The notes beneath the pieces were generated by a model. That model was given only the letters and a program-made list of their open reading frames with translations. It was not told the origin of the DNA and did no database searches. From assembly GCA_016195685.1 (NCBI GenBank), contig JACPZE010000044.1, positions 633 through 64,632 on the forward strand: a stretch of DNA of 64,000 nt. Reading direction: 5' to 3'. Of the stretch, positions 1 through 43,005 are shown one piece after another. The stretch comes from Candidatus Gottesmanbacteria bacterium (GTDB lineage Bacteria > Patescibacteriota > Microgenomatia > 2-02-FULL-39-11). Numbering within the stretch: position 1 is the stretch's first letter; the number at the start of each line of letters is the position of its first letter. Position numbers and translations under genes: made by a program.

Positions 1-586
1 GGATTAATAAATAAAAAGATAAAGTAATAAAGAAAGTAAGATAAGTATCTACAGCGTAGAAGTGCGAGAGTTGGACAGGAAGAACCATGATGGAGTAGAG
101 GAACATAGCAAGAAGGGGTAAATTTCTAATTGACCTAATTTCTAATTGACCTAATTGAGATTTGGCGTTTGGGGATTTTTTAGAAATTAGAAATTTGGAT
201 TTAGAAATTGCTTGTTTAGCTATTAGATAAACAAGTATTACCGTTCCCAGATCTACCATCGCTGAGAGTTGTCTGCCTATGATGGTGAGGTGCCCATAAT
301 CACCTTTTCCCAGAAGTTCTGCCACCCATTTGGTGAAAAATACAGGGAAAGTGCCATAGACGAAAAAGCCAAAACCCCGGTTATGAGGATTTAATGGCGA
401 AATTCCCGTATCCAAGTATTCTCCAAAATCTTTGGGCCAGGAAATACCTGTAGCGACCATGGTGAGAAATCTTTCATCCGGGTGAAGATGCTGTCCTTGA
501 TCCCAGTTGACACCGTAGAGACGCAAGAATGCGGCAAGAAGTAAGATTCCTAATGCTAATATTAAGGTCGAGAGTTTCTTGTCCAT
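1..586 (-). CDS. GT-C (GT39/ArnT/PMT-like) membrane glycosyltransferase; ATG at 586, 3' end beyond the window start (partial)
   Basis: Reverse-strand translation from 586 gives MDKKLSTLILALGILLLAAFLRLYGVNWDQGQHLHPDERF. The HPDERF motif is typical of PMT/ArnT family 39 glycosyltransferases. No minus-strand stop was found down to position 2. Not in the ORF track because it is truncated. Confidence 0.55.
   Translation of the reverse strand, partial: MDKKLSTLILALGILLLAAFLRLYGVNWDQGQHLHPDERFLTMVATGISWPKDFGEYLDTGISPLNPHNRGFGFFVYGTFPVFFTKWVAELLGKGDYGHLTIIGRQLSAMVDLGTVILVYLIAKQAISKSKFLISKKSPNAKSQLGQLEIRSIRNLPLLAMFLYSIMVLPVQLSHFYAVDTYLTFFITLSFYLLI
121..210. repeat. Tandem short repeats (16-mer aatttctaattgacct x2.5, then agaaatt-type units) inside the partial GT-C ORF
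   Basis: Direct reading of the sequence; same family as the other heptamer-type repeats in this window. Confidence 0.6.
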
Positions 587-590
587 TAAT

Positions 591-700
591 TTTTAATTTT
601 CAATTTACAATGAATTTTCAATGATTTAATTATCAAATTGAAAAATTGAGATTTGATTGAAAACTGAAAATTTTAAATTGAAAATTGTTACCTAAGTTTA
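591..700. repeat. Intergenic tandem heptamer-type repeat tract (aattttc/aattgaa units)
   Basis: ttttaattttcaatttacaatgaattttcaatgatttaattatcaaattgaaaaattgag..., between two GT-C genes. Confidence 0.6.
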
Positions 701-11335: not shown

Positions 11336-12574
11336 TCAATCAATAAGACTTGCGACTTTTTGTCCAAGTTCAATTGCGTAGTTGGTGCCTCTGTCCCATG
11401 GGTATACCATGTCCATATTCGCTAGGTAAACGTTTGGGATGGGTGTAATAAAGTCTGGTTTTATCTTTGAGTAGTTTGTGGGGAAAACTGGTTGGGCGAA
11501 AGGACCCATAAATAATTGAGAATTGAGAATTAAGAATTGAGAATTAAGTCGGGGATTGATTTTTTGAAGATAGGGAAGATATAGTTTTAATAACTCATCT
11601 TTGGTCATTTTAAGGTAGGGATGACCTTCTGGGAGATAATTTCCTACCCAAGTAAGGTGTTTTCCGCCATAATGTTTTGCATCCACCAAATTAGTTTGTT
11701 GGATAACTGCAATAAAAGGGAAAGTCCTGTCATTTATATTGAGCCAATATTCCTTTTCAAGTATTTTCTCTTTTGTCACGAGCAGTAGATTTAAAGCGTG
11801 CAAATGTGGAATATTCGTAAGTCTTTCTTTATAATCTTTTGGAAGTTGTGGGTACATTTTTATGAATATTGGGGAGGGTGTAGTGATAATGATCTTGTCA
11901 TAGTCTGTCGTTTTTTTGGTATCAAAAGGAGTAGAAAGTAATATCTTACCCCCGTCTTTTTTAAATTGCTTTTCCATTGCGTCTATCAGAGTTTGGTATC
12001 CGCCTTCCAGGTATCCTAATACTAGAGTGCGTTTTTTTATCCTAGCCCAAAACCAAGCCATGTTTACTACTTTTGCAAACTTTCCGAATTTGCCGAATAG
12101 GAGTGGTTTCCAGACAATCTCATATACTTTTTCACCAAAATATTTTCTCAGCCACTCATGGGCCAGATGTTTTTCTAAATTCTGACCAGAATTCATCGAT
12201 AAAAGTTTCAGAAACAAAGTGATTAGCCCAAGTCTTAGTCGATCTGTAAACGGAAGGGGAGAGAAAAAAAGGATTTGCAGTGGAGAATTAAAAGGGTAGC
12301 TTGTTTCCTGATAATAGATAGAAGTAAGAGTTTTTGGGAAAAGTAACTTTTCGGAAAGTCCCAGTTTTTTAATCAAATTTAAAGCAAAGTAATCATTGGA
12401 AAACCAATGGTGGTAGTGTTTTTCCACATACCAATCTGTACCCGGTAACTTTACCGCCGAAGCTAAGCCGCCTAACTCGCCAGTTGCTTCAAAAAGAGTC
12501 ACTTTATGATTTTGGGAAAGAGAAAGGCCAGCAGAAAGTCCGGTAAATCCTCCTCCCACAATTGTGATTTTCAT
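11336..12574 (-). CDS. FAD/NAD(P)-binding oxidoreductase (amine oxidase / phytoene desaturase-like)
   Basis: MKITIVGGGFTGLSAGL is a Rossmann dinucleotide-binding N-terminus. The track start at 12598 is a GTG inside the upstream repeat element, so the ATG at 12574 is preferred. It contains an in-frame heptamer repeat encoding LNSQFLILNSQL. Confidence 0.7.
   Translation of the reverse strand: MKITIVGGGFTGLSAGLSLSQNHKVTLFEATGELGGLASAVKLPGTDWYVEKHYHHWFSNDYFALNLIKKLGLSEKLLFPKTLTSIYYQETSYPFNSPLQILFFSPLPFTDRLRLGLITLFLKLLSMNSGQNLEKHLAHEWLRKYFGEKVYEIVWKPLLFGKFGKFAKVVNMAWFWARIKKRTLVLGYLEGGYQTLIDAMEKQFKKDGGKILLSTPFDTKKTTDYDKIIITTPSPIFIKMYPQLPKDYKERLTNIPHLHALNLLLVTKEKILEKEYWLNINDRTFPFIAVIQQTNLVDAKHYGGKHLTWVGNYLPEGHPYLKMTKDELLKLYLPYLQKINPRLNSQFLILNSQLFMGPFAQPVFPTNYSKIKPDFITPIPNVYLANMDMVYPWDRGTNYAIELGQKVASLID
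11511..11548. repeat. In-ORF tandem heptamer repeat (aattgag/aattaag)
   Basis: ataattgagaattgagaattaagaattgagaattaagtc, read directly. Confidence 0.6.
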
Positions 12575-12582
12575 ATTTTGAT

Positions 12583-12660
12583 TTACGGGTCCTGCCACTT
12601 AGTATCCCAACGCTACGATACATCTCCGGTTGGGACCCCTCTCTCGTGTCACCCGTTGTA
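12583..12660 (-). repeat. Palindromic 80-95-nt element (RPE-like), copy A, in the 5' UTR immediately upstream of the oxidoreductase start
   Basis: tttACGGGTcctgcc...tatcccaac...gttggga...gtcACCCGTtg has an outer stem ACGGGT/ACCCGT and an inner stem tcccaac/gttggga. It is homologous to copies at 25788, 36281 and 30418. Confidence 0.7.
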
Positions 12661-12685
12661 AATCGATGGAGATATATTATCCAGT

Positions 12686-13129
12686 TTATTGTGTAAATTC
12701 AACTGTGGGACTGTTACTTACACTAGTGTTACTGCCTAAATCAGTAGCAGTCAGTTTCACCGTGCCTGCGGTATTGGAAGTGATGAAAAATTGGGCCATG
12801 CCAAGATTATCTGTGGAAACAGTATCTGCCGGTTTTATGCTAGAAGTAGGTGTGGTCGCCAATTGTACACTCCTCCCAGGAAGAACGCTACCGCCTTCAT
12901 CTCTTATAAAGACTGAAACTTTTATTTGAGTTGGTTTCTTGTCGCTTCCCTCATCTCCGGCAACTCCAATTTGTGGAAATACGATTATAAATGATTTAAG
13001 AGGAGAGGGGTTTACGTTTTTTGCACGCAGAATTTGGTTGGTGGGTTTTTGCAGAGCTACAGTGGCAATACCTGCAAAAAACAGAAGGAAGAAAAAAGAA
13101 GTAAGAGCCAAAAACTTTCTGTCTTTCAT
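12686..13129 (-). CDS. Secreted protein with an Ig-like (Big/invasin-like) beta-sandwich domain
   Basis: Signal peptide MKDRKFLALTSFFFLLFFAGIATVA. The T/S-rich beta pattern VKLTATDLGSNTSVS. Confidence 0.5.
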   Translation of the reverse strand: MKDRKFLALTSFFFLLFFAGIATVALQKPTNQILRAKNVNPSPLKSFIIVFPQIGVAGDEGSDKKPTQIKVSVFIRDEGGSVLPGRSVQLATTPTSSIKPADTVSTDNLGMAQFFITSNTAGTVKLTATDLGSNTSVSNSPTVEFTQ

Positions 13130-16414: not shown

Positions 16415-17110
16415 ATGAGATATAAAAATAATATTATTGCAAAAGCTAAAAAATTAAGAATGAGAGGTAAGACCTATACCGAAATTAAAAAGTATTTTAA
16501 ATTATCAATTCCCAAAAGTACCCTAGTTAGTTGGTTTAGAGATATAAAATTACCTAGGAATTATCCAGAGCGAATACGGAAATTAAACTTGGAGAATTTA
16601 AAAAAAGCAAGATTATTGCACATAAAAAAGAGTTTTGAGAGGAGAAAGAAATTACTAAAAACATATAAAGAAAAGAATAATGGTTTGATTAAAAAAGCGT
16701 CTGAAGTGGGCTATGCAAAAATTGGATTATCGATGCTCTGGTTAGGGGAAGGATCAAAGCAAAGAGGAGTTTTTAGAGTAGGCAGCTCAGATCCTAGAAT
16801 AGTTAAATTATTTTTGTGGTTTATTAAAAAATGTTACCAATTTGACTTATCAAAGGTCAGATGTACTCTGCAATGTAGAGCAGATCAAAATATACCTGAG
16901 CTAGAAAAATATTGGATAAATATTACAAATATTCCCAAAAGATTATTTTACAAAGCAAGAATTGATCCGAGGACAATTGGTAAACAAACAATTAATAAAG
17001 AATATAAAGGTGTATTAAGAGTAGATTATTTTGACGTTAAAATTCAGGACGAAATGGCAGTCATAGCTGATATGTTATATAATCAAACTTTACCAGGGCC
17101 CGAAGTTTAA
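16415..17110 (+). CDS. Hypothetical HTH-domain protein, possibly a degenerate LAGLIDADG-like C-terminal domain
   Basis: N-terminal resolvase/IS30-type HTH (RMRGKTYTEIKKYFKLSIPKSTLVSWFRDI). The C-terminal LSMLWLGEGSK...VFRV is a weak LAGLIDADG-like pattern. The ORF 3' end overlaps the downstream tRNA by 15 nt. Confidence 0.45.
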   Translation: MRYKNNIIAKAKKLRMRGKTYTEIKKYFKLSIPKSTLVSWFRDIKLPRNYPERIRKLNLENLKKARLLHIKKSFERRKKLLKTYKEKNNGLIKKASEVGYAKIGLSMLWLGEGSKQRGVFRVGSSDPRIVKLFLWFIKKCYQFDLSKVRCTLQCRADQNIPELEKYWINITNIPKRLFYKARIDPRTIGKQTINKEYKGVLRVDYFDVKIQDEMAVIADMLYNQTLPGPEV

Positions 17111-25470: not shown

Positions 25471-27279
25471 TTATTTCTCACACACGTAATTTCCCATCAC
25501 TAATATATCTATTCCGGATCTTTCCAAAGTTGAATAAGCGTCGGCAGGGGAGGCGACAATTGGTTCTCCACGCAGATTAAATGAGGTATTTAATACAAGT
25601 GGTACGCCTGTTTTTTTGTAAAAAGATTTTATCAATTGGTAGTAAAGAGGATTTTCCTTTTCATAAACTAGTTGAGGTCGAGCCGTATTATCTGCATGAT
25701 TTATGGCTGGTACTTTCTTTTGCCATTCTTTCTTGACTGGTACCACATACAACATGTAGCGAAGAGGATAGTGATTTTCTAATTTTAATTTACGGGTCCT
25801 GCCGCTTAGGTATCCCAAACTACGATACATCTTCGTTTGGGATCCCTCCTTCGCGTCACCCGTGGTTAAAATAGATGTATTCATAGCTGATAAATCAAAT
25901 ATCTTATCAGCATATTCTGCAAGTACAGAAGGGGCAAAAGGGCGGAAAGCTTCCCGGAATTTCACTTTTCTATTTATAATATCTTTCATTTTCAGGTTTC
26001 GGGCGTCTGCCAGGATACTTCTTGCTCCCAGCGCTCTTGGTCCCCATTCAAATCTTCCTTGCATCCAACCGATGACTCGGCCTTTTGATATTTTATCCGC
26101 GATAAAATCAACGATCTTTTTGTCATTTAATTTTTTAAATTTTGCTTTTTTCTCCTTCAAAAACTTCTCAATTTCCGGATTATCATATTGTTTTCCCAGA
26201 TAAGCGTGGGTCATCATTTTTCGATTGCCTTTATTTAAGACATGATGATATGCATATAAAGCCGCACCCATTGCTCCTCCAGAATCACCCGCTGCCGGTT
26301 GTACAAAAATATTTTTAAAGCCAGATTCTTTTAAGATCCGGTAATTAGCTACAGAGTTTAATGCTACACCACCTGCTAGGCACAGATTATCTGATTTAGT
26401 TTTGTTTCTTACATATTTGGCCATACCCAGAATCAATTCTTCTGTTACCAGCTGTACACTCGAAGCGATATCGGCTGGCCGTTTTTCTACCAGATGAGAT
26501 TGGTTCGGATCGATTGGACTTCCCAAGAGTTTTACCAATTTTTCAGAAAATGATTTTTTATCAGAGTACTGAAAAGAAAAATAGGAAAAGTCCAAAGAGA
26601 AACTGCCATCCGCAAGTTGCCGTACTGTTTTCCAGATTTTATCTGCATAGATAGGTTTGCCGTATGGAGCTAGACCCATGAGTTTCCATTCTCCTTCGTT
26701 TACCTCAAACCCCAAAAATGCAGTAAAAGCAGAATAAAAAAGTCCAAGAGATTGAGGAAAACGTATTTCGGAATTTAATCTGAGCTTGCTTCCCTCGCCA
26801 ACCCCAAATGATGAGGTGGTCCATTCGCCGACACCATCCAAAGTGAGAATCGCTGATTTTTTAAAAAGGGATGGATAAAAACAGCTGGCCGCATGGGATA
26901 AATGATGATCGCAAAAAAGTATTTTGGAAAGATCAACTTTTACATAAGATGAAATTTCCTGTTTTATCCAAAGTTTTTGTGTCAGCCAGACCCGAATACC
27001 CTCCCTAAAACTTGCATATGACAGGGGATAAGTTGATATTGCACTGATAAGCATGCGGTGAAACTTCCTGAAAGGTTTTTCATAAAATACTACATAATCT
27101 AAATCAGACTTGCTGACATGAGCAATCTCCAGGCAAAAATCAATCGCATTTTTGGGAAAAGACGAATCGTGTTTTTTACGGCTGAACCGTTCCTCTTCTG
27201 CTGCAGCTAAAACTTCTCCGTCTTTTAAAAGTACGGCAGCTGCGTCATGATAATAACAGGAAATTCCTAAGATATTCAT
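25471..27279 (-). CDS. Carbamoyltransferase (NodU/CmcH family)
   Basis: MNILGISCYYHDAAAVLLKDGEVLAAAEEERFSRKKHD and C-terminal PAINHADNTARPQLV...VLNTSFNLRGEPIV are family hallmarks. The start is set to the internal Met overlapping the upstream gene's stop. It carries a roughly 30-aa in-frame insertion from the palindromic element. Confidence 0.85.
   Translation of the reverse strand: MNILGISCYYHDAAAVLLKDGEVLAAAEEERFSRKKHDSSFPKNAIDFCLEIAHVSKSDLDYVVFYEKPFRKFHRMLISAISTYPLSYASFREGIRVWLTQKLWIKQEISSYVKVDLSKILFCDHHLSHAASCFYPSLFKKSAILTLDGVGEWTTSSFGVGEGSKLRLNSEIRFPQSLGLFYSAFTAFLGFEVNEGEWKLMGLAPYGKPIYADKIWKTVRQLADGSFSLDFSYFSFQYSDKKSFSEKLVKLLGSPIDPNQSHLVEKRPADIASSVQLVTEELILGMAKYVRNKTKSDNLCLAGGVALNSVANYRILKESGFKNIFVQPAAGDSGGAMGAALYAYHHVLNKGNRKMMTHAYLGKQYDNPEIEKFLKEKKAKFKKLNDKKIVDFIADKISKGRVIGWMQGRFEWGPRALGARSILADARNLKMKDIINRKVKFREAFRPFAPSVLAEYADKIFDLSAMNTSILTTGDAKEGSQTKMYRSLGYLSGRTRKLKLENHYPLRYMLYVVPVKKEWQKKVPAINHADNTARPQLVYEKENPLYYQLIKSFYKKTGVPLVLNTSFNLRGEPIVASPADAYSTLERSGIDILVMGNYVCEK
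25788..25870 (-). repeat. Palindromic RPE-like element, copy B, inserted in-frame inside the carbamoyltransferase
   Basis: tttACGGGTcctgccgcttaggtatcccaaactacgatacatcttcgtttgggatccctccttcgcgtcACCCGTgg. Translated in the gene frame it gives LTTGDAKEGSQTKMYRSLGYLSGRTRKLKLE with no stop. Confidence 0.75.
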
Positions 27280-27729: not shown

Positions 27730-28329
27730 ATGCGAAACACTCAATTAAACATAAAATTAGTTATTTTCACCGTAATAGCAGGTAAATTAAAGATATTTTT
27801 GTCCAACGATAAATTATTAGTTGGGTCATTAATTACTGGGAAATCTCTAAACCAATCTGCAGAGATACTTTTTAAAGAAAAAGTTGGCATATTGTTAAAG
27901 GATATCTATATCGAGCAATTATACACTTTTTCTTCTATAAAACCGCTAGAAATTTCAGTAGTTTATTACTTTCTAGTACCTGAACACAAAATATATTCAA
28001 ATAAATATAATTGGAAAGAATTAGCTACATTTATATTAAATAAAAGTGACAAGAAAATTATCCTATACGCGGTGCAAAGACTAAGGTGGAAGATAGAGTA
28101 TACCAATGTAGTGTACAGTTTGCTTCCGGATGAATTTACTTTTGGTCAATTGCAGTCAATATACGAGGCGATATTGGGTAAAACGCTAGATAAGAGAAAC
28201 TTCCGAAAGAAGATTTTGATCTTGAATATTCTAAAGTCCACCGGACATATCAAAAATTTGGGGAAAGCCCGTCCTGCCGAGATGTTTTCGTTTACTAAAA
28301 AGAAATTATCTTTTGTCCAAATTCTTTAA
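27730..28329 (+). CDS. nrtR: NrtR-like regulator (Nudix-related N-domain plus C-terminal winged helix), candidate regulator of the nad genes
   Basis: Diverged Nudix-like N-domain. C-terminal FTFGQLQSIYEAILGKTLDKRNFRKKIL is NrtR winged-helix-like. It sits adjacent to nadC/nadA/nadB. Confidence 0.5.
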   Translation: MRNTQLNIKLVIFTVIAGKLKIFLSNDKLLVGSLITGKSLNQSAEILFKEKVGILLKDIYIEQLYTFSSIKPLEISVVYYFLVPEHKIYSNKYNWKELATFILNKSDKKIILYAVQRLRWKIEYTNVVYSLLPDEFTFGQLQSIYEAILGKTLDKRNFRKKILILNILKSTGHIKNLGKARPAEMFSFTKKKLSFVQIL

Positions 28330-29434: not shown

Positions 29435-30412
29435 TTAATTCGATAACTTCAGCATCCTTTCAATTGGTATTCTAGCCCTTTCTGCTATTTCTTTGGGAAC
29501 TTTTACTTCATAGACTAGATTCTTCAGAGTATTTAGTAACTTGGGTAGGGTGATCATTTTCATAAATTCACAAACCATATCATCACGAAGGGGTATAAAA
29601 TTTTTCTGCGGGTTATCTTTCTTCATGCGGTATAAAATTCCAGTTTCTGTCGCGACGACATATTCTTTTGCAGGAGATTGTTGTACATGCTTCATCATTC
29701 CGCCGGTTGAAAGGATTTTGGTTTTTGATGTGGGTATATCTCCGCTTGCTACATAGTGCATGCAGGTGGAAACGCAACCGCATTCAGGATGGATAAGAAA
29801 TTCAGCTTGGGGATGTTCATCCATTTTTTGGATAATATCAGCTGGTTTTACCCTAGCATGGACGTGGCATTCACCCGGATAAATAATCATATTTTTGCGG
29901 CCTGTAGTTTTGGCCACATAATCACCCAAAAACATATCAGGTAGGAAAAGAATAGGTTTTTCGGGAGGTAAAGAATTGACTATTTTTACAGCATTAGCCG
30001 ATGTGACGCAGTAATCTGATTCCGCTTTTACTTCTGCTGTGGTATTCACATAAGAAACAACTAAAGCTTCAGGGTACATTTTCTTCCATTTCCGTAATTC
30101 TGTGCCGTCAATACTGGCAGCCAGAGAACAGCCGGCATTTAAATCTGGGATAAGGACAGTTTTATCAGGTGAGAAGATAGAGGCTGATTCTGCCATGAAA
30201 TGGACACCGCAAAAAACAATAAGTGATTTTTTTGTTTCTGCGGCAAGTCTGGATAGTTCCAGGGAATCACCCACAAAATCCGCGACATCTTGGATTTCCG
30301 GGAGCTCGTAATTATGAGCAATTATTAATGCTCCCCTTTTTTCTTTCCAAAGGAGGACGTCTTTCATCAATTTTTGTTTTTCTTCTTCAAGCTCATTGTT
30401 TTGCTTCGTCAT
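29435..30412 (-). CDS. nadA: Quinolinate synthase NadA
   Basis: IIAHNYELPEIQDVADFVGDSLELS, VFCGVHFMAESA and Cys ligands. Confidence 0.9.
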   Translation of the reverse strand: MTKQNNELEEEKQKLMKDVLLWKEKRGALIIAHNYELPEIQDVADFVGDSLELSRLAAETKKSLIVFCGVHFMAESASIFSPDKTVLIPDLNAGCSLAASIDGTELRKWKKMYPEALVVSYVNTTAEVKAESDYCVTSANAVKIVNSLPPEKPILFLPDMFLGDYVAKTTGRKNMIIYPGECHVHARVKPADIIQKMDEHPQAEFLIHPECGCVSTCMHYVASGDIPTSKTKILSTGGMMKHVQQSPAKEYVVATETGILYRMKKDNPQKNFIPLRDDMVCEFMKMITLPKLLNTLKNLVYEVKVPKEIAERARIPIERMLKLSN

Positions 30413-30417
30413 TTTAA

Positions 30418-30432
30418 TTTACGGGTCCTGCC
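30418..30432 (-). repeat. Partial copy D of the palindromic element (tttacgggtcctgcc), abutting the nadA start codon
   Basis: The same 15-mer terminus as copies A-C; the minus strand reads GGCAGGACCCGTAAATTAAAATG. Confidence 0.5.
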
Positions 30433-30597
30433 GTATTCTGTATCAGCATATAAATTTTTCAGACTCTGCAGCTCGTGCTCGGTATAGCCCTAACCGTCTG
30501 TCCATATGCCTTAATATTCTCGCACTCAATTGCAGAGATCTTCAAAATTCATATTTCTTACTGAATTAGTATCGCAATGCCCGTGGTTAAATTTAAA

Positions 30598-30640
30598 ATG
30601 TTTATACTTAATACCTAATACTTGATACTTAATACTATTT
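30598..30640. repeat. Heptamer-type repeats (tacttaa/tacctaa/tacttga) in the nadA-nadB divergent promoter region
   Basis: tttatacttaatacctaatacttgatacttaatactatttt. Confidence 0.55.
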
Positions 30641-30684
30641 TCAGTTATTATACTTACTTAGTGTAAAAAATACAATAATTCATT

Positions 30685-32208
30685 ATGAAAACTGATTTTA
30701 TTGTGATTGGATCAGGTTTAGCTGGACTTACAAGTAGTTTAATTCTTTCTAACTACGGAAAAGTTTTGTTGGTTACCAAAGGAAAACTATCCGATGGGGC
30801 AACTAATTGGGCGCAGGGAGGTGTTGCTTGTGTGGTGGAAAAGAATGATACTTGGCAGAAGCATTATAAAGATACTCTCGTTTCCGGAGCATACCATAAT
30901 GACAGAAAGTCAGTTGAATTTTTGGTGAAGAATGCTCCATCAGCTATTGATTGGCTTGAAAAGATGGGGGTCCCTTTTGAGAAGGAAGAAGGCCATTTTA
31001 AAGTAGGGAGGGAGGGAGGGCACTCCTATAACCGGATTATTCACGCCACAGATTTTACCGGCAAAGAAATAGAATTTACCCTTCTTAAGAAGATAAGGGA
31101 GAATAAAAATATAATTATTTGGGAAGATTCTTTTGCCCAAAAATTATTAGTGGAGAGGAAGAAATGTTTTGGCGTTCAAATAATAAAAAAGGACAAAATT
31201 ATTCTTTGTTATTCAAAGTTTACGATACTAGCCACTGGAGGGTTAGGTCAAATTTATCAGTGGACTACAAATCCGCTAGTTTCTACAGGGGATGGTTATG
31301 CTCTCGCTTATCGGGGAGGAGTAAAATTAAAAGATATGGAATTTATACAATTCCATCCGACTGCTCTAAAACCTGCCTCCTCGGCAGGCAGGTATGGTAA
31401 TTCGCCGCTATTTCTTCTCACTGAAGCATTGCGAGGGGAAGACGCTTATTTAGTAAATTCCAAAGGAGAAAGATTTATGGGAGATTATGATAAGAGAGAA
31501 GAATTAGCTCCTCGAGATATAGTTTCCCGAGCTATTTTTGAAGAGCAACAAAAAGGATACGAGATCTATCTGGATATCAGGCATAAAAGAAAACAATTCT
31601 TAAAGAAAAGATTTCCCAATATTTATGAAGAACTGAAAAAAAGAGGGTTTGATCTAGTAAAACACTTAATCCCAGTCACTCCAGCAGCCCATTTCAGTTG
31701 CGGGGGAGTAGAAACTGATTTGTCCGGCAGGACTAATATAAAAAACCTCTTCGCATTTGGAGAAGTAGCTTGTACTGGTGTGCATGGAGCCAACAGGTTA
31801 GCCTCGAATTCTTTACTTGAAGCAGTAGTTTTTCCGCTCCGTCTGCTGAGGTCAGCGAGACTTTTTTGCGCACCTCCCAGTTCGTCCACTCCTTTGCCTC
31901 CGGCAAACTCGTGGTACTCAGGAAACAGTGGGCGTGCTCAAAAAGCTAGCTTCCCTGCAGACTTTTATCTAAATATAAGAAAAAATCTCCAAAAACTTAT
32001 GTGGGAGAAGGTGGGGATAGTGAGAAGAAAAAGGGATTTAGAATATGCGATAGGTAAGTTAAGCAGTTGGGAAAAAGATCTGGAAGATTTGGATTATCCC
32101 AGTAGAGAATTATTGGAATTAAAAAACATGATATTGGTGGGAAAACTCATTACCCAATCAGCACTCAAAAGAAGAAAAAGTCTAGGGACGCATTTTATTA
32201 CCGTATGA
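30685..32208 (+). CDS. nadB: L-aspartate oxidase NadB
   Basis: DFIVIGSGLAGLTSSL FAD site, RxxHxxGG-like HPTAL and the succinate dehydrogenase/fumarate reductase flavoprotein fold. Confidence 0.9.
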   Translation: MKTDFIVIGSGLAGLTSSLILSNYGKVLLVTKGKLSDGATNWAQGGVACVVEKNDTWQKHYKDTLVSGAYHNDRKSVEFLVKNAPSAIDWLEKMGVPFEKEEGHFKVGREGGHSYNRIIHATDFTGKEIEFTLLKKIRENKNIIIWEDSFAQKLLVERKKCFGVQIIKKDKIILCYSKFTILATGGLGQIYQWTTNPLVSTGDGYALAYRGGVKLKDMEFIQFHPTALKPASSAGRYGNSPLFLLTEALRGEDAYLVNSKGERFMGDYDKREELAPRDIVSRAIFEEQQKGYEIYLDIRHKRKQFLKKRFPNIYEELKKRGFDLVKHLIPVTPAAHFSCGGVETDLSGRTNIKNLFAFGEVACTGVHGANRLASNSLLEAVVFPLRLLRSARLFCAPPSSSTPLPPANSWYSGNSGRAQKASFPADFYLNIRKNLQKLMWEKVGIVRRKRDLEYAIGKLSSWEKDLEDLDYPSRELLELKNMILVGKLITQSALKRRKSLGTHFITV

Positions 32209-35215: not shown

Positions 35216-37583
35216 TTTTCTTTCGAAAAATAATAAAAATTATTCCCAAGATTATTTCTCCGGCTAAAAGAAAAACTTTCAACTTATTCGGTTCATAGGT
35301 AAATTCCACTGTGTGAGTTCCGGGTGTGACTGGAGTAGCTAGATAAAATGGGAACACTGCGAATTTACTTGCCTCGTTTCCATCCAACTTTACCTTCCAA
35401 TCAGGATGGTAACTCATCTTAAACATGGCATAACAATATTTACAGTTATTCGGTACTTCAATTGTGGCGGAAAATGTTTGTTTTGATTGATTATCTTTGA
35501 TTATTTTTCCGGAAGGAGTAGATTCTGGAAACATGAGAGGAAAATCCGCGAATATATTCTTGGATTGCCCGTTTTCTATATAATTTGTTTCATCAGTCAT
35601 GGTTAAAACTCTTTGCATGTTTTGTGGAATAGTAGGATTATTCTCTACAGAGATAAGAGGGTGCATTTTCCACCTTCGGGTGTAGGAATTCCACCAATAA
35701 TGGACAAGGTTTAGATAATTCGTCTTATCGCTTTTTACCATCATTGGAGAAGTTACCACATCAAACCAACCGGTAGTAGGTGCCTGGAAAAGATTAAACG
35801 GGCCGTATTTATCAACCAATTTTAGACTAGATGCGAAACCTTCATTTTTCGCAGCTACAGCATATTTTATATTCAGCAGATCAAAGTCCAAAGCCTCTCT
35901 TTCATCAAAATCCTGCTCGTTTTCAGAAAGGGGCGACCAGGTTTCTGGTAGGAATTGGCTGATGTCATATCCTATACCTCCAAATAAAAGATAAAGTTCT
36001 GTTGATCCAAGTCTGAAATTTTTGCCCCAATTTCCAGGCCTTCCGGCATAGATTCTTCCGCGTGGAAGGGAATCGATCTTTGCGAGTAGATTTTGGAAAT
36101 TATGTTCATCATAGCGGTAGGCATCATTCGCCTGGTAAATCCATTTGTTATTTAAAGTGGCATAATCAGCAGTTTGTTTGGTAGTTATGTAGATCAAAAA
36201 GGATGCGAATATAAATAATAAGATATAAAAGACTATATTGAGATTTGGATTCACAGCCTCAATACCGAATTTCTCATCTGCGCGGGTTCTGCCGCGAAAG
36301 TATCCCAACTTCGTCCCGCTAAGCGGGACTACGTTTGGGAGTCCCTCCTTCGCGCCACCCACAGTTAATAATTTTGATATTTTATATTTGATTTTTGATA
36401 TAAACGAAAATAAATATTCCAACCCAGCTGGAATTAAGAATAGTGCTGCAATATGTACCCCCACTATAAATCTATGCTGGTGAAAGTCTTTCATACCGGG
36501 GATAAGATCGATCAGTCCTCCCCAAGTTGTTCTGCCAAAATATAAAATCATCCAGAAAGCAAAAAGAAGAGAAAAAGGAAAATATTTCCTGCGGATAGTC
36601 AGGACAAAAAAACCTGCCAAAACAAGAATAGTTACAATAGGGAATCTCTGCCAGTCAAAAATCTCCCCTGCAAACAGTTGTCTTGCCACTTCATACCATC
36701 CGTATGAATTGAATTTCCAGATAGGATCCCAGAAAGAGATGATGTGATATTGATTATTTAAAAGAATGGGAATAATCCAATATGAAAGAATTAAGAAACA
36801 TGAAGCAAGAATGAAGAATAATTTCTTACCCCTATTTATTATTTGAGATAAATTTAAATCTAGAAATATAAAAGGTATGGTAGAGAGAAATCCTATTATT
36901 CCGATACCTAGGTGTCCCATGACTGTGAGGGTGAGAAATATTATCGATTTTAAGGTGTATTTATTCCACAACTTGTAATCCTTACTACTTGATTCGTCAC
37001 CGATTAATGCCCTATAAGTAAAAGCAATTCCGAGTGGTAGGAAAATAAGTGCATAAAGCTGTGAAGTGAGTCCGTAGCCTCGCCAAAGGTAACTTGGCGG
37101 GTCAATACCGTAAAGTCCGTCTGTTGAGTAGTGAGCAGAGAAGAACGCTCCTAAAGCAGCCAAGATGGGTGAGAAACCAACTATTCTGAGAGCTAAAAAA
37201 ACAGATAGAGGAAAAAGACTTAGCAGTAAGTATTTTGTCCAATTATAGTAATTGTAAATTGAAAATTGAGAATTGAAAATTGAAGAGATGGGTTTAATAA
37301 AAAGATGATATGAGGAGACAATTGTTATTTGAGGTATATGACTGTAATAAAATGGAAGGGGATAACCTTCAGCCCAATTGGTTACATTATGGTCGATAAG
37401 ATTAGGTAAGCAAGATAAAGATAGTGGGCAACCGTAATTTTCCCAAACCCAATTGGTTCTGCCTACCAAAGAAAATTGAAAAATATTATCATTTGGATCA
37501 GCCAAGATTTGAGTCTCCGGATAGTTGAGCCAGAGATTAAAGATTATTGTTGCTGCTAATATTAAATAGGCGATGTATTTCAT
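35208..37583 (-). CDS. Large polytopic membrane protein, GT-C-like (YfhO/PMT-like), carrying an RPE-like insertion and heptamer-repeat insertions
   Basis: 791 aa with many TM helices and a C-terminal soluble domain. The element inserted in-frame gives LTVGGAKEGLPNVVPLSGTKLGYFRGRTRADEKF. Confidence 0.6.
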   Translation of the reverse strand: MKYIAYLILAATIIFNLWLNYPETQILADPNDNIFQFSLVGRTNWVWENYGCPLSLSCLPNLIDHNVTNWAEGYPLPFYYSHIPQITIVSSYHLFIKPISSIFNSQFSIYNYYNWTKYLLLSLFPLSVFLALRIVGFSPILAALGAFFSAHYSTDGLYGIDPPSYLWRGYGLTSQLYALIFLPLGIAFTYRALIGDESSSKDYKLWNKYTLKSIIFLTLTVMGHLGIGIIGFLSTIPFIFLDLNLSQIINRGKKLFFILASCFLILSYWIIPILLNNQYHIISFWDPIWKFNSYGWYEVARQLFAGEIFDWQRFPIVTILVLAGFFVLTIRRKYFPFSLLFAFWMILYFGRTTWGGLIDLIPGMKDFHQHRFIVGVHIAALFLIPAGLEYLFSFISKIKYKISKLLTVGGAKEGLPNVVPLSGTKLGYFRGRTRADEKFGIEAVNPNLNIVFYILLFIFASFLIYITTKQTADYATLNNKWIYQANDAYRYDEHNFQNLLAKIDSLPRGRIYAGRPGNWGKNFRLGSTELYLLFGGIGYDISQFLPETWSPLSENEQDFDEREALDFDLLNIKYAVAAKNEGFASSLKLVDKYGPFNLFQAPTTGWFDVVTSPMMVKSDKTNYLNLVHYWWNSYTRRWKMHPLISVENNPTIPQNMQRVLTMTDETNYIENGQSKNIFADFPLMFPESTPSGKIIKDNQSKQTFSATIEVPNNCKYCYAMFKMSYHPDWKVKLDGNEASKFAVFPFYLATPVTPGTHTVEFTYEPNKLKVFLLAGEIILGIIFIIFRKKIS
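36281..36368 (-). repeat. Palindromic RPE-like element, copy C, inserted in-frame in the GT-C-like gene
   Basis: cGCGGGTtctgccgcgaaagtatcccaacttcgtcccgctaagcgggactacgtttgggagtccctccttcgcgccACCCAC. It is in the same frame as copy B and the inner hairpin is 9 nt longer. Confidence 0.7.
37250..37286. repeat. In-ORF heptamer repeat (aattgta/aattgaa/aattgag) encoding SIFNSQFSIYNY
   Basis: aattgtaaattgaaaattgagaattgaaaattgaag. Confidence 0.6.
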
Positions 37584-41275: not shown

Positions 41276-43005
41276 ATCGTCACCGCTTCTTTATCGTAAA
41301 CTGGTTTCAAAAGAGTAGGGTAAAGATAATTTTTGGCAAAAGGTTTTTCTTCCGGGCCTTGGAATACTAGAGCAATTTTATTACTCACAAGGAAGTTTTT
41401 AGCTTCTTCTGTGGTCATTTTATCTTCAAATAATCTTTGTGTATCATTTTCCTTTTCCTGCTCTTTATATGTATAGCCAAAATGGCCGATAAAACTGATC
41501 GTATTGGTATATGCTGGCAAATAATTTCCGGTATAAAAGGTAGAGAGTGTAACTGATTTGGTTGGATAATTTAGGTTTATGAAATTAAAAGCATCAAAAA
41601 TCCTATTATCCAGATAAACATTGCCATAAAATGGCCAGTATTCCCTGATCTGATCTTTGATACTCCAGTAAAGGGTGGGGTAAGTAAATATAATAAATAA
41701 CGTAATACTAGTAAGAGCAACTAAATTTGAAATTTGAAATTTGAAATTTGAAATGAAATCTAAATTTTTAATATTTAATTTTTGAAAATTCAATGAAAAT
41801 TTAAAATTGAAAATTGAAAATTGTTTAAGAAACTTTTCAATAGTCTTAATTCCCAGTATTGCTAGTATTGCCAATGGTAAATATGGTACCCCCTGTATTA
41901 AGCGGACATTTGAAAGATTTAATTTTGGAGCGATAGGTATAAAAAGAAGTGGAATTACTAACCAGCAAAGGATAAATATGTTTTCAAACTTTTTGGATTT
42001 TATGGTCTGATAAATTTCCATGATAGAAAATGGTAGAAGAATACCCAGCGCTCCAATTAGCTCTCTATCGAGGGGAAACTGCAGGTTTTTCTCCCAGTCG
42101 ATATACTGGCTCCAGGGAAAACCATTCTTGGTTTGAGAAACCATAAACAATAAAAATATTAACCCAATAACCCAATAACCCAATAACCCAATCAGTTTTG
42201 ACTTTTGAATTTTAACTTTTGAATTTTGGCCATTGGAAATATTTAAAAAGTAGTAAATCAACATGCTAGAAGGAATTATTAATAAGATGATCAGTAAGCT
42301 CGGTGTATGTACAAATGCCATAATTGCGCTAAGTAGAATGAGCCAGAATAGATATTTTCGTTGGGGTTTATTGATATATTTGAAAATGACAATTATTGAA
42401 GTGACAAGTAGAAATCCCCCCAACATGTGATGCGGTAGAAATGCGGCCCTTCTTACAGGATCGATGCCATTCCACCAATGCATGTAAGGTACTGACCGAA
42501 GAGTTCCATAATCATTGATAGTATGCATAAATGGTGAAGCAAATAAAAAGAAAAAGTATGTAAGATTTGGATATGGAATTTTGAGATATAAAATCAGGTA
42601 GTAAGAAGTAATAAGTAGGATTAAACCAAGAATAATTCTAGTCAGGTGATAGGTATAAGGATACCAAAGACCCAATATTTTGCTTAATCTACCAAGCCAC
42701 AAAAAGTAAGAAAAAATTATAGATGGTTGATGTCCTTCAGAAGTGTAAGGATCGTAAGTCATCCAAGCGCCATTTGCCCCTTCATTCATAAGAGAGAGAT
42801 AGAAGTAATAGTCTTGGGTATTGTTATGAATTAACGTCAAGGTACGGCCGGGAGGAGTATGTCTGACTTGCATGATCATCGGAGTGAGGTTGAGGGCAAG
42901 AATAAATAAAGTGGCGAGAACAAAAAAAACAATTTTTGATTTGAGGATTTTTAATATCACTGAGAATTTATTGTAAATTGTAAATTGTAAATTGTAAATT
43001 ACCAA
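41257..43005 (-). CDS. Polytopic membrane protein (GT-C-like) with two in-frame heptamer-repeat insertions
   Basis: ORF; paralog of the preceding gene. The insertions encode IFNFKFSLNFQKLNIKNLDFISNFKFQISN and LIGLLGYWVIGLIF. Confidence 0.55.
   Translation of the reverse strand: MVIYNLQFTIYNKFSVILKILKSKIVFFVLATLFILALNLTPMIMQVRHTPPGRTLTLIHNNTQDYYFYLSLMNEGANGAWMTYDPYTSEGHQPSIIFSYFLWLGRLSKILGLWYPYTYHLTRIILGLILLITSYYLILYLKIPYPNLTYFFFLFASPFMHTINDYGTLRSVPYMHWWNGIDPVRRAAFLPHHMLGGFLLVTSIIVIFKYINKPQRKYLFWLILLSAIMAFVHTPSLLIILLIIPSSMLIYYFLNISNGQNSKVKIQKSKLIGLLGYWVIGLIFLLFMVSQTKNGFPWSQYIDWEKNLQFPLDRELIGALGILLPFSIMEIYQTIKSKKFENIFILCWLVIPLLFIPIAPKLNLSNVRLIQGVPYLPLAILAILGIKTIEKFLKQFSIFNFKFSLNFQKLNIKNLDFISNFKFQISNLVALTSITLFIIFTYPTLYWSIKDQIREYWPFYGNVYLDNRIFDAFNFINLNYPTKSVTLSTFYTGNYLPAYTNTISFIGHFGYTYKEQEKENDTQRLFEDKMTTEEAKNFLVSNKIALVFQGPEEKPFAKNYLYPTLLKPVYDKEAVTIYKLNL
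41723..41824. repeat. In-ORF tandem heptamer repeats (aatttga x4 ... aaattga x3)
   Basis: ctaaatttgaaatttgaaatttgaaatttgaaatgaaatc...aaattgaaaattgaaaattg. Confidence 0.65.
42160..42230. repeat. In-ORF tandem repeats (aacccaat x4, then ttttgaa/ttttaac units)
   Basis: aacccaataacccaataacccaataacccaatcagttttgacttttgaattttaacttttgaatttt. Confidence 0.6.
42970..43000. repeat. Intergenic tandem heptamer repeat (ttgtaaa x4)
   Basis: ttgtaaattgtaaattgtaaattgtaaatt. Confidence 0.6.

Follow-up and report, generated by a model that had tools for sequence, protein, structure and literature searches.

The DNA studied here is a stretch of 64,000 nucleotides from Candidatus Gottesmanbacteria (GCA_016195685.1, contig JACPZE010000044.1, forward strand 633 to 64,632), referred to below as the window, which carries three full copies and one rod-like variant of a short repeat (Table 1). 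Copy A occupies the spacer between a Big_1-domain gene and an oxidoreductase gene, copy B lies within a carbamoyltransferase gene, copy C within a gene for a YfhO/DUF6541-like membrane protein, and the rod-like variant forms the leader of nadA. All are on the minus strand, which is also the strand of their host genes; a first-pass annotation of this DNA had described a single orientation relative to host-gene transcription, and in the window this holds.

Table 1. Coordinates of the repeat copies and adjoining start codons in the window, with the parts of the family fold and examples of covarying alignment columns
Feature	Position	Strand	Details
Copy A, ~99 nt	12575..12673	(-)	covariance model 77 bits
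Copy A, 5' flank	12655-12673	(-)	
Copy A, core hairpin	12587-12654	(-)	
Copy A, 3' tail	12575-12586	(-)	GTAAATCAAAAT
Oxidoreductase ATG	12572..12574	(-)	FAD/amine-oxidase type, MKITIVGGG...; directly adjoins copy A tail
Copy B, ~99 nt (33 codons)	25782..25880	(-)	core 25794-25861; 95 bits; z = -4.85; in frame, carbamoyltransferase
nadA start codon	30410..30412	(-)	PF02445 NadA, E = 2e-115
Rod-like variant, 189 nt, nadA leader	30411..30599	(-)	shares both termini with the family
Copy C	36272..36379 (outer limits approximate)	(-)	core 36284-36360 (77 nt); 61 bits; z = -4.81
Family, 5' flank			(A)TAC(A/C)TTAATTTTAnnAC (minus strand of window)
Family, helix P1			GGGT/ACCC, extension differs per copy
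Family, asymmetric loop			GA opposite GCAGG
Family, helix P2a			CGC/GCG
Family, tandem loop			GA/GA, between P2a and P2b
Family, helix P2b			3 bp, freely covarying
Family, loop			A-GGGG opposite UA
Family, helix P3			UCCCAnAC/GUnUGGGA
Family, short P3b			closes 9-nt loop
Family, variable tip			GAGAUGUAUCGUAG or nested hairpins up to ~100 nt
Family, 3' tail, 12 nt, A/T-rich			GTAAATTAnAAT
Covariation	columns 7-96		AU 14, GC 13
Covariation	columns 21-79		GC 17, AU 7, CG 6
Covariation	columns 34-69		UA 10, AU 9, CG 5

The 15-mer TTTACGGGTCCTGCC occurs exactly three times in the window (+ strand 12582, 25789 and 30418), and with up to three mismatches there are six matches against 0.62 expected. 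With filters off, a covariance model built from 33 copies detects three full copies and no more (12579-12662, 25786-25869 and 36276-36368, all minus), and nhmmer recovers the same three together with the nadA fragment, again all on the minus strand. At 99-189 nt and non-coding the elements are of MITE size, and 42 copies were gathered across loci; their G+C content is 44-54%, compared with 36% for the window. Rfam 15 at gathering thresholds reports only two tRNA-Ala genes in the window and no family for the repeat, and at E values up to 10 it gives nothing relevant at copy A or in the nadA leader.

Copy A makes up nearly all of the 111-nt spacer between the Big_1-domain gene (ORF including stop ends at 12686) and the oxidoreductase ATG, leaving 12 nt to spare; beside the related copy L014a the spare spacer is about 2 nt. 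Its minus strand from 12662 to 12575 reads TTTACAAC-GGGTGACACGAGAGAGGGGTCCCAACCGGAGATGTATCGTAGCGTTGGGATACTAAGTGGCAGGACCC-GTAAATCAAAAT and is followed by the oxidoreductase start codon, so that the 3' part just before it is ...GGCAGGACCC GTAAATCAAAAT ATG. The placement of this copy 5' of the oxidoreductase ATG was correctly noted at first, but the gap of 9 nt then described disappears, because the conserved 12-nt tail runs to 12575 and touches the ATG. Copy A is degenerate, with helix P2b broken and a minimum-energy fold that is not the family fold (z = -1.3), and it carries GAGAGAGG in place of AAGGAGG.

The nadA leader reads GGCAGGACCCGTAAATTAAAATG directly before the ATG (30412-30410), and over a longer stretch ...CGGCAGGACCCGTAAATTAAAATG. 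A 15-nt sequence (30418-30432) had been seen to abut this start codon and was taken for a terminal fragment of the repeat; it is adjacent as described, but it is the 3' end of the 189-nt rod variant and not a fragment. The 3' terminus of the variant, CGGCAGGACCCGTAAATTAAAAT (30433-30411), is identical to copy B over 23/23 nt, and its final two bases are the AT of the nadA ATG. The 5' terminus is ATTTTAAATTTAACCACGGGC (30599-30579), with ATTTTAAATTTAACCACGGG matching the 5' flank of the family. The interior of ~145 nt is unrelated to the family, and only the termini match other loci in the data. The variant is without the arm that bears AAGGAGG and folds at -47.3 kcal/mol (z = -3.8). A riboswitch, including an NAD riboswitch for the nadA leader, was considered and rejected, given the unrelated genes downstream of the copies, the lack of an Rfam family, and a nadA interior that is unique to this locus.

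The earlier description of the repeat as a UTR element does not extend to copies B and C, which lie in frame inside long ORFs. Copy B is translated as NTSILTTGDAKEGSQTKMYRSLGYLSGRTRKLK (core part ..TGDAKEGSQTKMYRSLGYLSGRTRKLK..) and splits the Pfam Carbam_trans_C domain of the carbamoyltransferase, with ~42 residues at a place where PDB homologues have a linker of 4-7. In the NCBI annotation the host is a single 602-aa product from a Candidatus Gottesmanbacteria MAG, the baseline length of orthologues being 569 aa, and an AlphaFold model computed from a 25-sequence alignment gives low confidence to the whole C-terminal domain. Copy C lies in frame in a 791-aa protein (...LTVGGAKEGLPNVVPLSGTKLGYFRGRTRADEK...), is read in the same frame as copy B to give the peptide ..VGGAKEG...GRTRADEK.., and carries an extra hairpin at the tip. 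These two are the only copies in the window with AAGGAGG; the proposal that the element contains this motif thus stands for B and C and fails for both of the UTR copies, A and the nadA variant.

A conserved peptide, (T/A/V)GDA(K/R)EGS..MYRS.GY.SGRTRK, recurs in carbamoyltransferase, NadC, Maf, YfhO-like proteins, a pilin and others. Sense copies were found in carbamoyltransferase (four copies, two sites), in NadC (three copies, two sites), in YfhO-like and other membrane proteins, in Maf, at a pilin N-terminus and in one unknown protein, and NadB is an antisense host. Every in-gene copy found preserves the reading frame (14 sense and 2-3 antisense), and the copies must therefore be translated, as a hydrophilic segment of ~30 residues. 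Five of the six frames of the repeat are poor in stop codons, which fits tolerance inside genes but not the sense bias of the in-gene copies; stop content does not explain that bias, because 26-29 of 33 copies have open antisense frames and 26 of 33 are open in the sense frame that in-gene copies use. An exhaustive search of cluster representatives with a 36-residue peptide gave three matches at E <= 0.001 and contributed two further peptide-bearing proteins, these low numbers reflecting a query of only 36 residues; a word-indexed search, ill-suited to so short a query, gave one match.

Alignment of 33 copies (A1) supports the fold in Table 1, with 84.8% of cells able to pair compared to 73% after shuffling and 30-42% with the partners slid, and with fourteen pairs changed on both sides. 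RNAalifold independently predicts the same helices. In an alignment of 42 copies, which was made to the covariance model and leans toward the structure, 94.8% of cells pair, double changes occur in 12 of 21 pairs, and none of 500 shuffles reaches the observed value. G-U pairs outnumber A-C mismatches by 16 to 6, and of the two strands the given one has the better fold in 31 of 33 copies (p = 2e-6), including most of those antisense to neighbouring genes. Outside the core, the A/T-rich subfamily is conserved for ~17-19 nt upstream (ATACATTAATTTTAnnAC) and for the 12 nt of the tail downstream, and then no further; its ends are complementary (ATTTTAA..AC with GT..TTAAAAT, plus P1) and conserved within the subfamily, and ends differ between subfamilies. 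A second subfamily has an added outer stem, GAGTTTCGCG...CGCGAAACTC, and the 5' flank includes an unpaired extra, ATACATTA. Diverged members scoring 21-42 bits (L041 and L044) indicate that the core drifts, and the invariance of the internal loops is partly imposed by the pattern used for searching.

That degenerate pattern – GGGTGNCNCGANNGAGGG, a gap of 25-55 nt, and GGCAGNACCC – matched at 10 loci among species-representative genomes and at 29 among metagenomes; roughly five of these hits are GC-rich and due to chance. The ten genome loci are in records titled Gottesmanbacteria, Saccharimonadales, Planctomycetales and Acidimicrobiales and in two A/T-rich MAGs labelled Gammaproteobacteria, the taxon labels of loci being throughout the MAG record titles. 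The covariance model brought in further copies that are more diverged, in some of which 40-100 nt are nested at the hairpin tip, and four syntenic relatives were added through orthologues of the carbamoyltransferase. The 42 copies gathered from genomes and metagenomes come mostly from CPR bacteria, with a few on GC-rich contigs labelled as other phyla; the core is found on contigs of 50-78% local G+C titled as different phyla. Collections of viral contigs, phages and plasmids contained no copies. A description of the family was sought in Rfam and in the literature, where searches for MITEs or palindromic elements of CPR bacteria or Patescibacteria found none and searches by sequence strings returned unrelated primer matches only. 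Comparison by eye with SRP, 5S, RNase P and tRNA gave short chance matches only.

Syntenic relatives differ from the window, and from one another, in which sites are filled. The nadA-nadC spacer is empty in the window and filled in L014 and L044; in nadC the window is likewise empty at residue ~212, where L014 has a copy, and at residue ~138, where L041 and L044 have one. In nadB the window has a different 120-nt rod and L014 an antisense copy. The nadA leader, occupied by the rod variant in the window, is empty in L014, with 11 nt from a TATAAT box to the nadA ATG. The L014 orthologue of the YfhO-like gene has no copy C and highly similar flanks, and the Big_1-oxidoreductase spacer of L044 holds an unrelated small hairpin in place of copy A. 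At the carbamoyltransferase site of copy B the window copy is near consensus (95 bits), those of L041 and L044 are diverged (36 and 21 bits), and other orthologues have nothing.

The positions of copies were tabulated in an ORF-based census. About one third of copies are in genes, where sense copies predominate (14 sense, 2-3 antisense, p = 0.013), the antisense ones being the copy in NadB of L014 and one or two weak matches in P0030. Between co-directional genes there are 10 sense and 6 antisense copies (p = 0.45), with about six between divergent genes and two between convergent genes. Non-random orientation and position had been anticipated; a sense bias is indeed present across all copies, but the 10:6 split between co-directional genes shows no significant bias. 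The distance to the upstream stop codon is as short as that to the downstream start codon, which indicates that copies simply fill short spacers and speaks against the idea that insertion targets the vicinity of start codons. The genes downstream are unrelated – alaS, ahcY, an M20 peptidase, a PBP1A-like protein, era, nadC and a pilin – and none of the gene pairs flanking intergenic copies resembles two halves of one gene.

Start-codon adjacency, first noticed at two places in the window, recurs in other genomes: for seven sense copies (A, the nadA variant, L014a, L015b, L016, L044a and L042a), at five loci, the start codon is 8-16 nt past the core (ACCC) and at most ~4 nt from the 12-nt tail. 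Our guess is that this is more than expected for random insertion. The leaders of window genes are A/T-rich and almost without Shine-Dalgarno motifs, with any 4-mer match in 9 of 38 genes and GGAGG in none of the 38. The AAGGAGG of the family is unlikely to act as a ribosome-binding site, since neither UTR copy has it and its place in the family is ~65-70 nt 5' of the point at which the start codon of a host gene adjoins the element. The AGGA closest to the nadA and oxidoreductase ATGs, part of GGCAGGACCC, stops 13-15 nt short of them. A Shine-Dalgarno-type initiation region, with GGAGG ~5-10 nt upstream of the start, is therefore not what the repeat supplies. Its A/T-rich 3' tail resembles the Shine-Dalgarno-free leaders normal in this genome, which could explain why insertions ending at a start codon are tolerated and why such copies survive.

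No protein recurs as a neighbour at the loci, and a Pfam scan of 45 window ORFs found no transposase. In a search for target-site duplications, direct repeats of 3-6 nt did not exceed pair-shuffled controls at any fixed offset, imprecise ends and indels blurring the offsets, and filled and unfilled orthologous sites have diverged too far for nucleotide alignments to place the ends. Integron attC sites, IS200/IS605 ends and REP/RAYT elements were set aside, since the termini misfit the RYYYAAC/GTTRRRY that we take to be expected, and since the repeat is one long hairpin and presumably differs in this from the two like-oriented subterminal hairpins of those systems.

The repeat family thus has a fold conserved by compensatory changes, is multi-copy, is present or absent at orthologous sites, and fills spacers in either orientation. 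We consider it probable, if well short of certain, that it is a short, non-coding, hairpin-forming and non-autonomous palindromic repeat, ~100 nt in its commonest form, that behaves as a selfish element and has multiplied in CPR bacteria much as the Rickettsia palindromic elements (RPEs) have in their hosts. RPEs are found in frame in many unrelated genes, to which they add a conserved peptide, and have no known transposase (PMC10969869). They share with this repeat a length of ~100-150 nt, the lack of coding capacity, hairpin formation, multiple copies, and insertion both in frame within unrelated genes and between genes. The likeness is one of behaviour, so that the repeat may be said to work like an RPE without membership of an RPE family, its hosts being CPR bacteria and not Rickettsia. 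It differs from RPEs in showing compensatory changes across subfamilies, in having its core on contigs of several phyla and very different G+C, and in a hairpin tip that accepts nested insertions. With Correia/NEMIS, ERIC, QMITE and REP/BIME elements it has in common small size, dependence on functions not its own, a preference for A/T-rich intergenic DNA, and presence or absence between relatives. Unlike MITEs, it has no detected target-site duplication and no parent insertion sequence that we could find, its interior and not its termini is conserved, and in-frame copies in genes are much more frequent than usual.

Mobilisation would occur in trans, by an enzyme that is not encoded beside the copies and that would probably act on a folded single strand; the conservation of the interior hairpin and not the ends, and the greater stability of the same strand whatever the direction of host transcription, both point to this. 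Transcribed copies would form hairpins of -25 to -50 kcal/mol, which may alter mRNA stability, processing or initiation as a side effect. Transcripts of bacterial MITEs and intergenic palindromes do form stable hairpins able to alter mRNA processing (PMC10969869).

Influence on translation initiation or mRNA stability had been suggested as the role of the element, and in its fullest form this would make it a cis-acting 5'-UTR module, working through AAGGAGG or the hairpin, or one whose insertion targets start-adjacent sites. The seven start-adjoining sense copies are in keeping with such a module, as are the pilin of L021, whose only plausible start codons lie within the element, an in-frame AUG in the apical loop 14 nt after the internal AAGGAGG, and the precedent of Correia and ERIC repeats, which alter transcript fate via RNase III and RNase E (PMC10969869). 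It sits poorly, however, with the absence of the motif from both window UTR copies in a genome almost without Shine-Dalgarno motifs, with 6 of 16 copies between co-directional genes being antisense, with the third of copies that lie within ORFs, with downstream genes of no common function, with upstream stops adjoined as closely as downstream starts, and with a copy A that no longer takes the family fold. We regard a UTR module as distinctly unlikely: the census argues against initiation as the purpose of the element, dedicated translation control looks like a poorer fit than selfish repeat DNA of the Rickettsia palindromic-element kind, and start-codon adjacency is best read as something that follows from compact spacers. 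The hairpin may still affect translation or mRNA stability, though as a side effect and not as the reason for the element. A conserved, covarying fold often immediately upstream of a start codon is also a property of riboswitches and structured leaders; the repeat differs in having unrelated genes downstream, both orientations, copies in ORFs, several copies per 64 kb and no Rfam family. The fixed sense 5'-UTR position before related genes that marks a cis-regulatory leader is not seen here, and this class was rejected.

The fold itself could be the reason for conservation, with the 68-nt core a functional RNA – a site for protein binding or processing, for example, or a small ribozyme – that a mobile element carries or that has been recruited as an intercistronic signal for processing or stabilisation. 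Invariant internal loops (GA opposite GCAGG, tandem GA/GA, and GGGG) between covarying helices, the 16 to 6 excess of G-U over A-C, the superior folding of one strand in 31 of 33 copies, persistence on contigs of 50-78% local G+C under different phylum titles, an interior more conserved than the ends, and the many copies placed exactly between co-transcribed genes would all follow. Yet the transcripts of six intergenic copies would carry the complement, the apparent invariance comes largely from the search pattern and gives way in the members at 21-42 bits, no Rfam family appears even at E = 10, the nadA variant retains the termini with the core replaced, and copy A is without one helix; we therefore hold such a functional RNA to be unlikely. 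A related proposal, that the core is an undescribed functional RNA or ssDNA module which either provides a new kind of mobile element (protein-free or dependent on a host enzyme) with its recognition or catalytic unit or is a portable intercistronic processing or binding site, would explain the conserved interior on CPR-, Planctomycetales- and Acidimicrobiales-titled contigs, and seems to us doubtful to a marked degree. As for the in-gene copies, they might be removed as a tiny intron or skipped as a ribosomal bypass ('hop') element. Yeast mitochondrial GC clusters and bypass elements are G+C-rich palindromic inserts in an A/T-rich genome that occur also within protein-coding genes; those of the bypass type disrupt the frame, and ribosomes pass over them. 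The elements described here are similarly richer in G+C than their host and hairpin-forming, are mostly in sense orientation when within genes, and interrupt conserved domains. However, all in-gene copies are open and in phase, a very improbable outcome had removal relieved them of any need to keep the frame, antisense in-frame copies exist, and intergenic copies are not flanked by the halves of a gene. Obligatory splicing or bypass is very unlikely on these grounds, an intron or hop of any kind is hard to credit, and translation through the insert is the simpler and more economical reading; an insert that disrupts the frame unless removed was not found, read-through being available in both orientations.

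If the repeat is a selfish palindromic element, CPR bacteria – known for small genomes and unusual proteins – carry an RPE-like hairpin family that reshapes intergenic spacers and adds loops of ~30 residues to enzymes and membrane proteins. For annotation this would mean inflated protein lengths, spurious small ORFs over intergenic copies and displaced start codons, and for protein-family alignments recurrent 'hot-spot' insertions such as that in the carbamoyltransferase. Where Shine-Dalgarno sites are barely used, as in this genome, an AAGGAGG should then not be counted as a ribosome-binding site. With a conserved interior and compensatory changes, the family would be well suited to a search for the mechanism that mobilises RPE-type elements.

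A separate observation concerns where conservation lies. A typical MITE is conserved at its termini; in this repeat conservation is strongest in the interior loops and helices, across very different G+C, which runs against a selfish repeat and looks like a functional RNA, part of this interior conservation having been imposed by the degenerate search pattern. By eye, the loop between P1 and P2a resembles in topology a kink-turn (C-stem, 3-nt bulge, tandem sheared G.A and A.G pairs, NC-stem), with GCG-GCA-GG-ACCC opposite GGGU-GA-CGC; most copies, however, would have G.G as the second pair, and in copy C the pattern is swapped.

Unrelated insertions of 15-45 residues are present in many Gottesmanbacteria orthologues of the carbamoyltransferase (window gene 25471-27276; baseline length of 569 aa in orthologues P0002-P0057), where they occupy two or three recurrent sites. 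Among them are copies of the element, the roughly 100-nt hairpin-forming repeat with a 68-nt core, elsewhere in the protein, in sense orientation in P0057 and antisense in P0030. The window's nadB gene contains a rod that encodes, in frame, SARLFCAPPSSSTPLPPANSWYSGNSGRAQKASFPADFY (see the table), and an antisense copy of the element occupies the same nadB site in the syntenic relative L014. The minus strand of this rod folds better than the plus strand (-54 vs -44 kcal/mol). A second in-frame insertion in nadB overlaps a small palindrome, CCTGCCTCCTCGGCAGG.

Features of the window and of related loci
Feature	Location	Context
Rod-like palindromic insertion, ~120 nt, distinct from the element	window 31855-31975	inside nadB, gene on + strand
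7-residue in-frame insertion PASSAGRY	window about 31372-31400	nadB; absent from L014
GTATTAAGTAT-like 11-mer run	window 30604-30642	inverted copy at 2019-2057
GC-rich element copy	L002 4092-4150	upstream of alaS; contig titled Acidimicrobiales
Gene for a type IV pilin with a GFTLVELLV motif	L021 about 1560-1712	minus strand
AATTGAA/ATTGAGA-type heptamer arrays	window 624-686, 1497-1591, 11515-11545, 37251-37281, 41719-41836, 42938-43000	

Hairpins of various kinds seem to fill spacers routinely in this genome and its relatives. The spacer between the Big_1 and oxidoreductase genes, which holds copy A of the element in the window, has a different small hairpin (ATGACCC...GGGTCAT) at 16714-16775 of the syntenic relative L044. 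Upstream of nadA, the 11-mer run is flanked by the promoter-like TTTACA...TATAAT of that gene and by the nadA rod, the 189-nt variant in the leader, and its inverted copy, 28.5 kb distant, is 85% complementary. An NrtR regulator gene (27730-28329) lies close to the run.

The element itself varies among loci from other genomes and metagenomes. In the GC-rich copy of L002 a second instance of the 3' arm GGAGGCAGGACCCGCCAGCC is located 24 nt downstream, so that the 5' arm has two alternative pairing partners. One subfamily (L003, L008, L011, L019, L024, L025 and L031) has an extra conserved outer stem, GAGTTTCGCG...CGCGAAACTC, placed about 20 nt and 12 nt beyond the core, which gives a rod of about 130 nt. 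The L021 pilin gene appears to begin within the element, whose own AUGs are the only plausible in-frame starts giving a short leader (MYRSMGYPSGRTRKFKSSLSG|FTLVELL).

Judged from 38 window gene starts, Shine-Dalgarno motifs are almost absent from the genome: 9 of the 38 genes carry a matching 4-mer between -18 and -6, GGAGG occurs in none of them, and the leaders are A/T-rich. The heptamers form tandem arrays that recur at many window sites, and the array at 11515-11545 lies within the oxidoreductase ORF, where it encodes NSQFLILNSQ.
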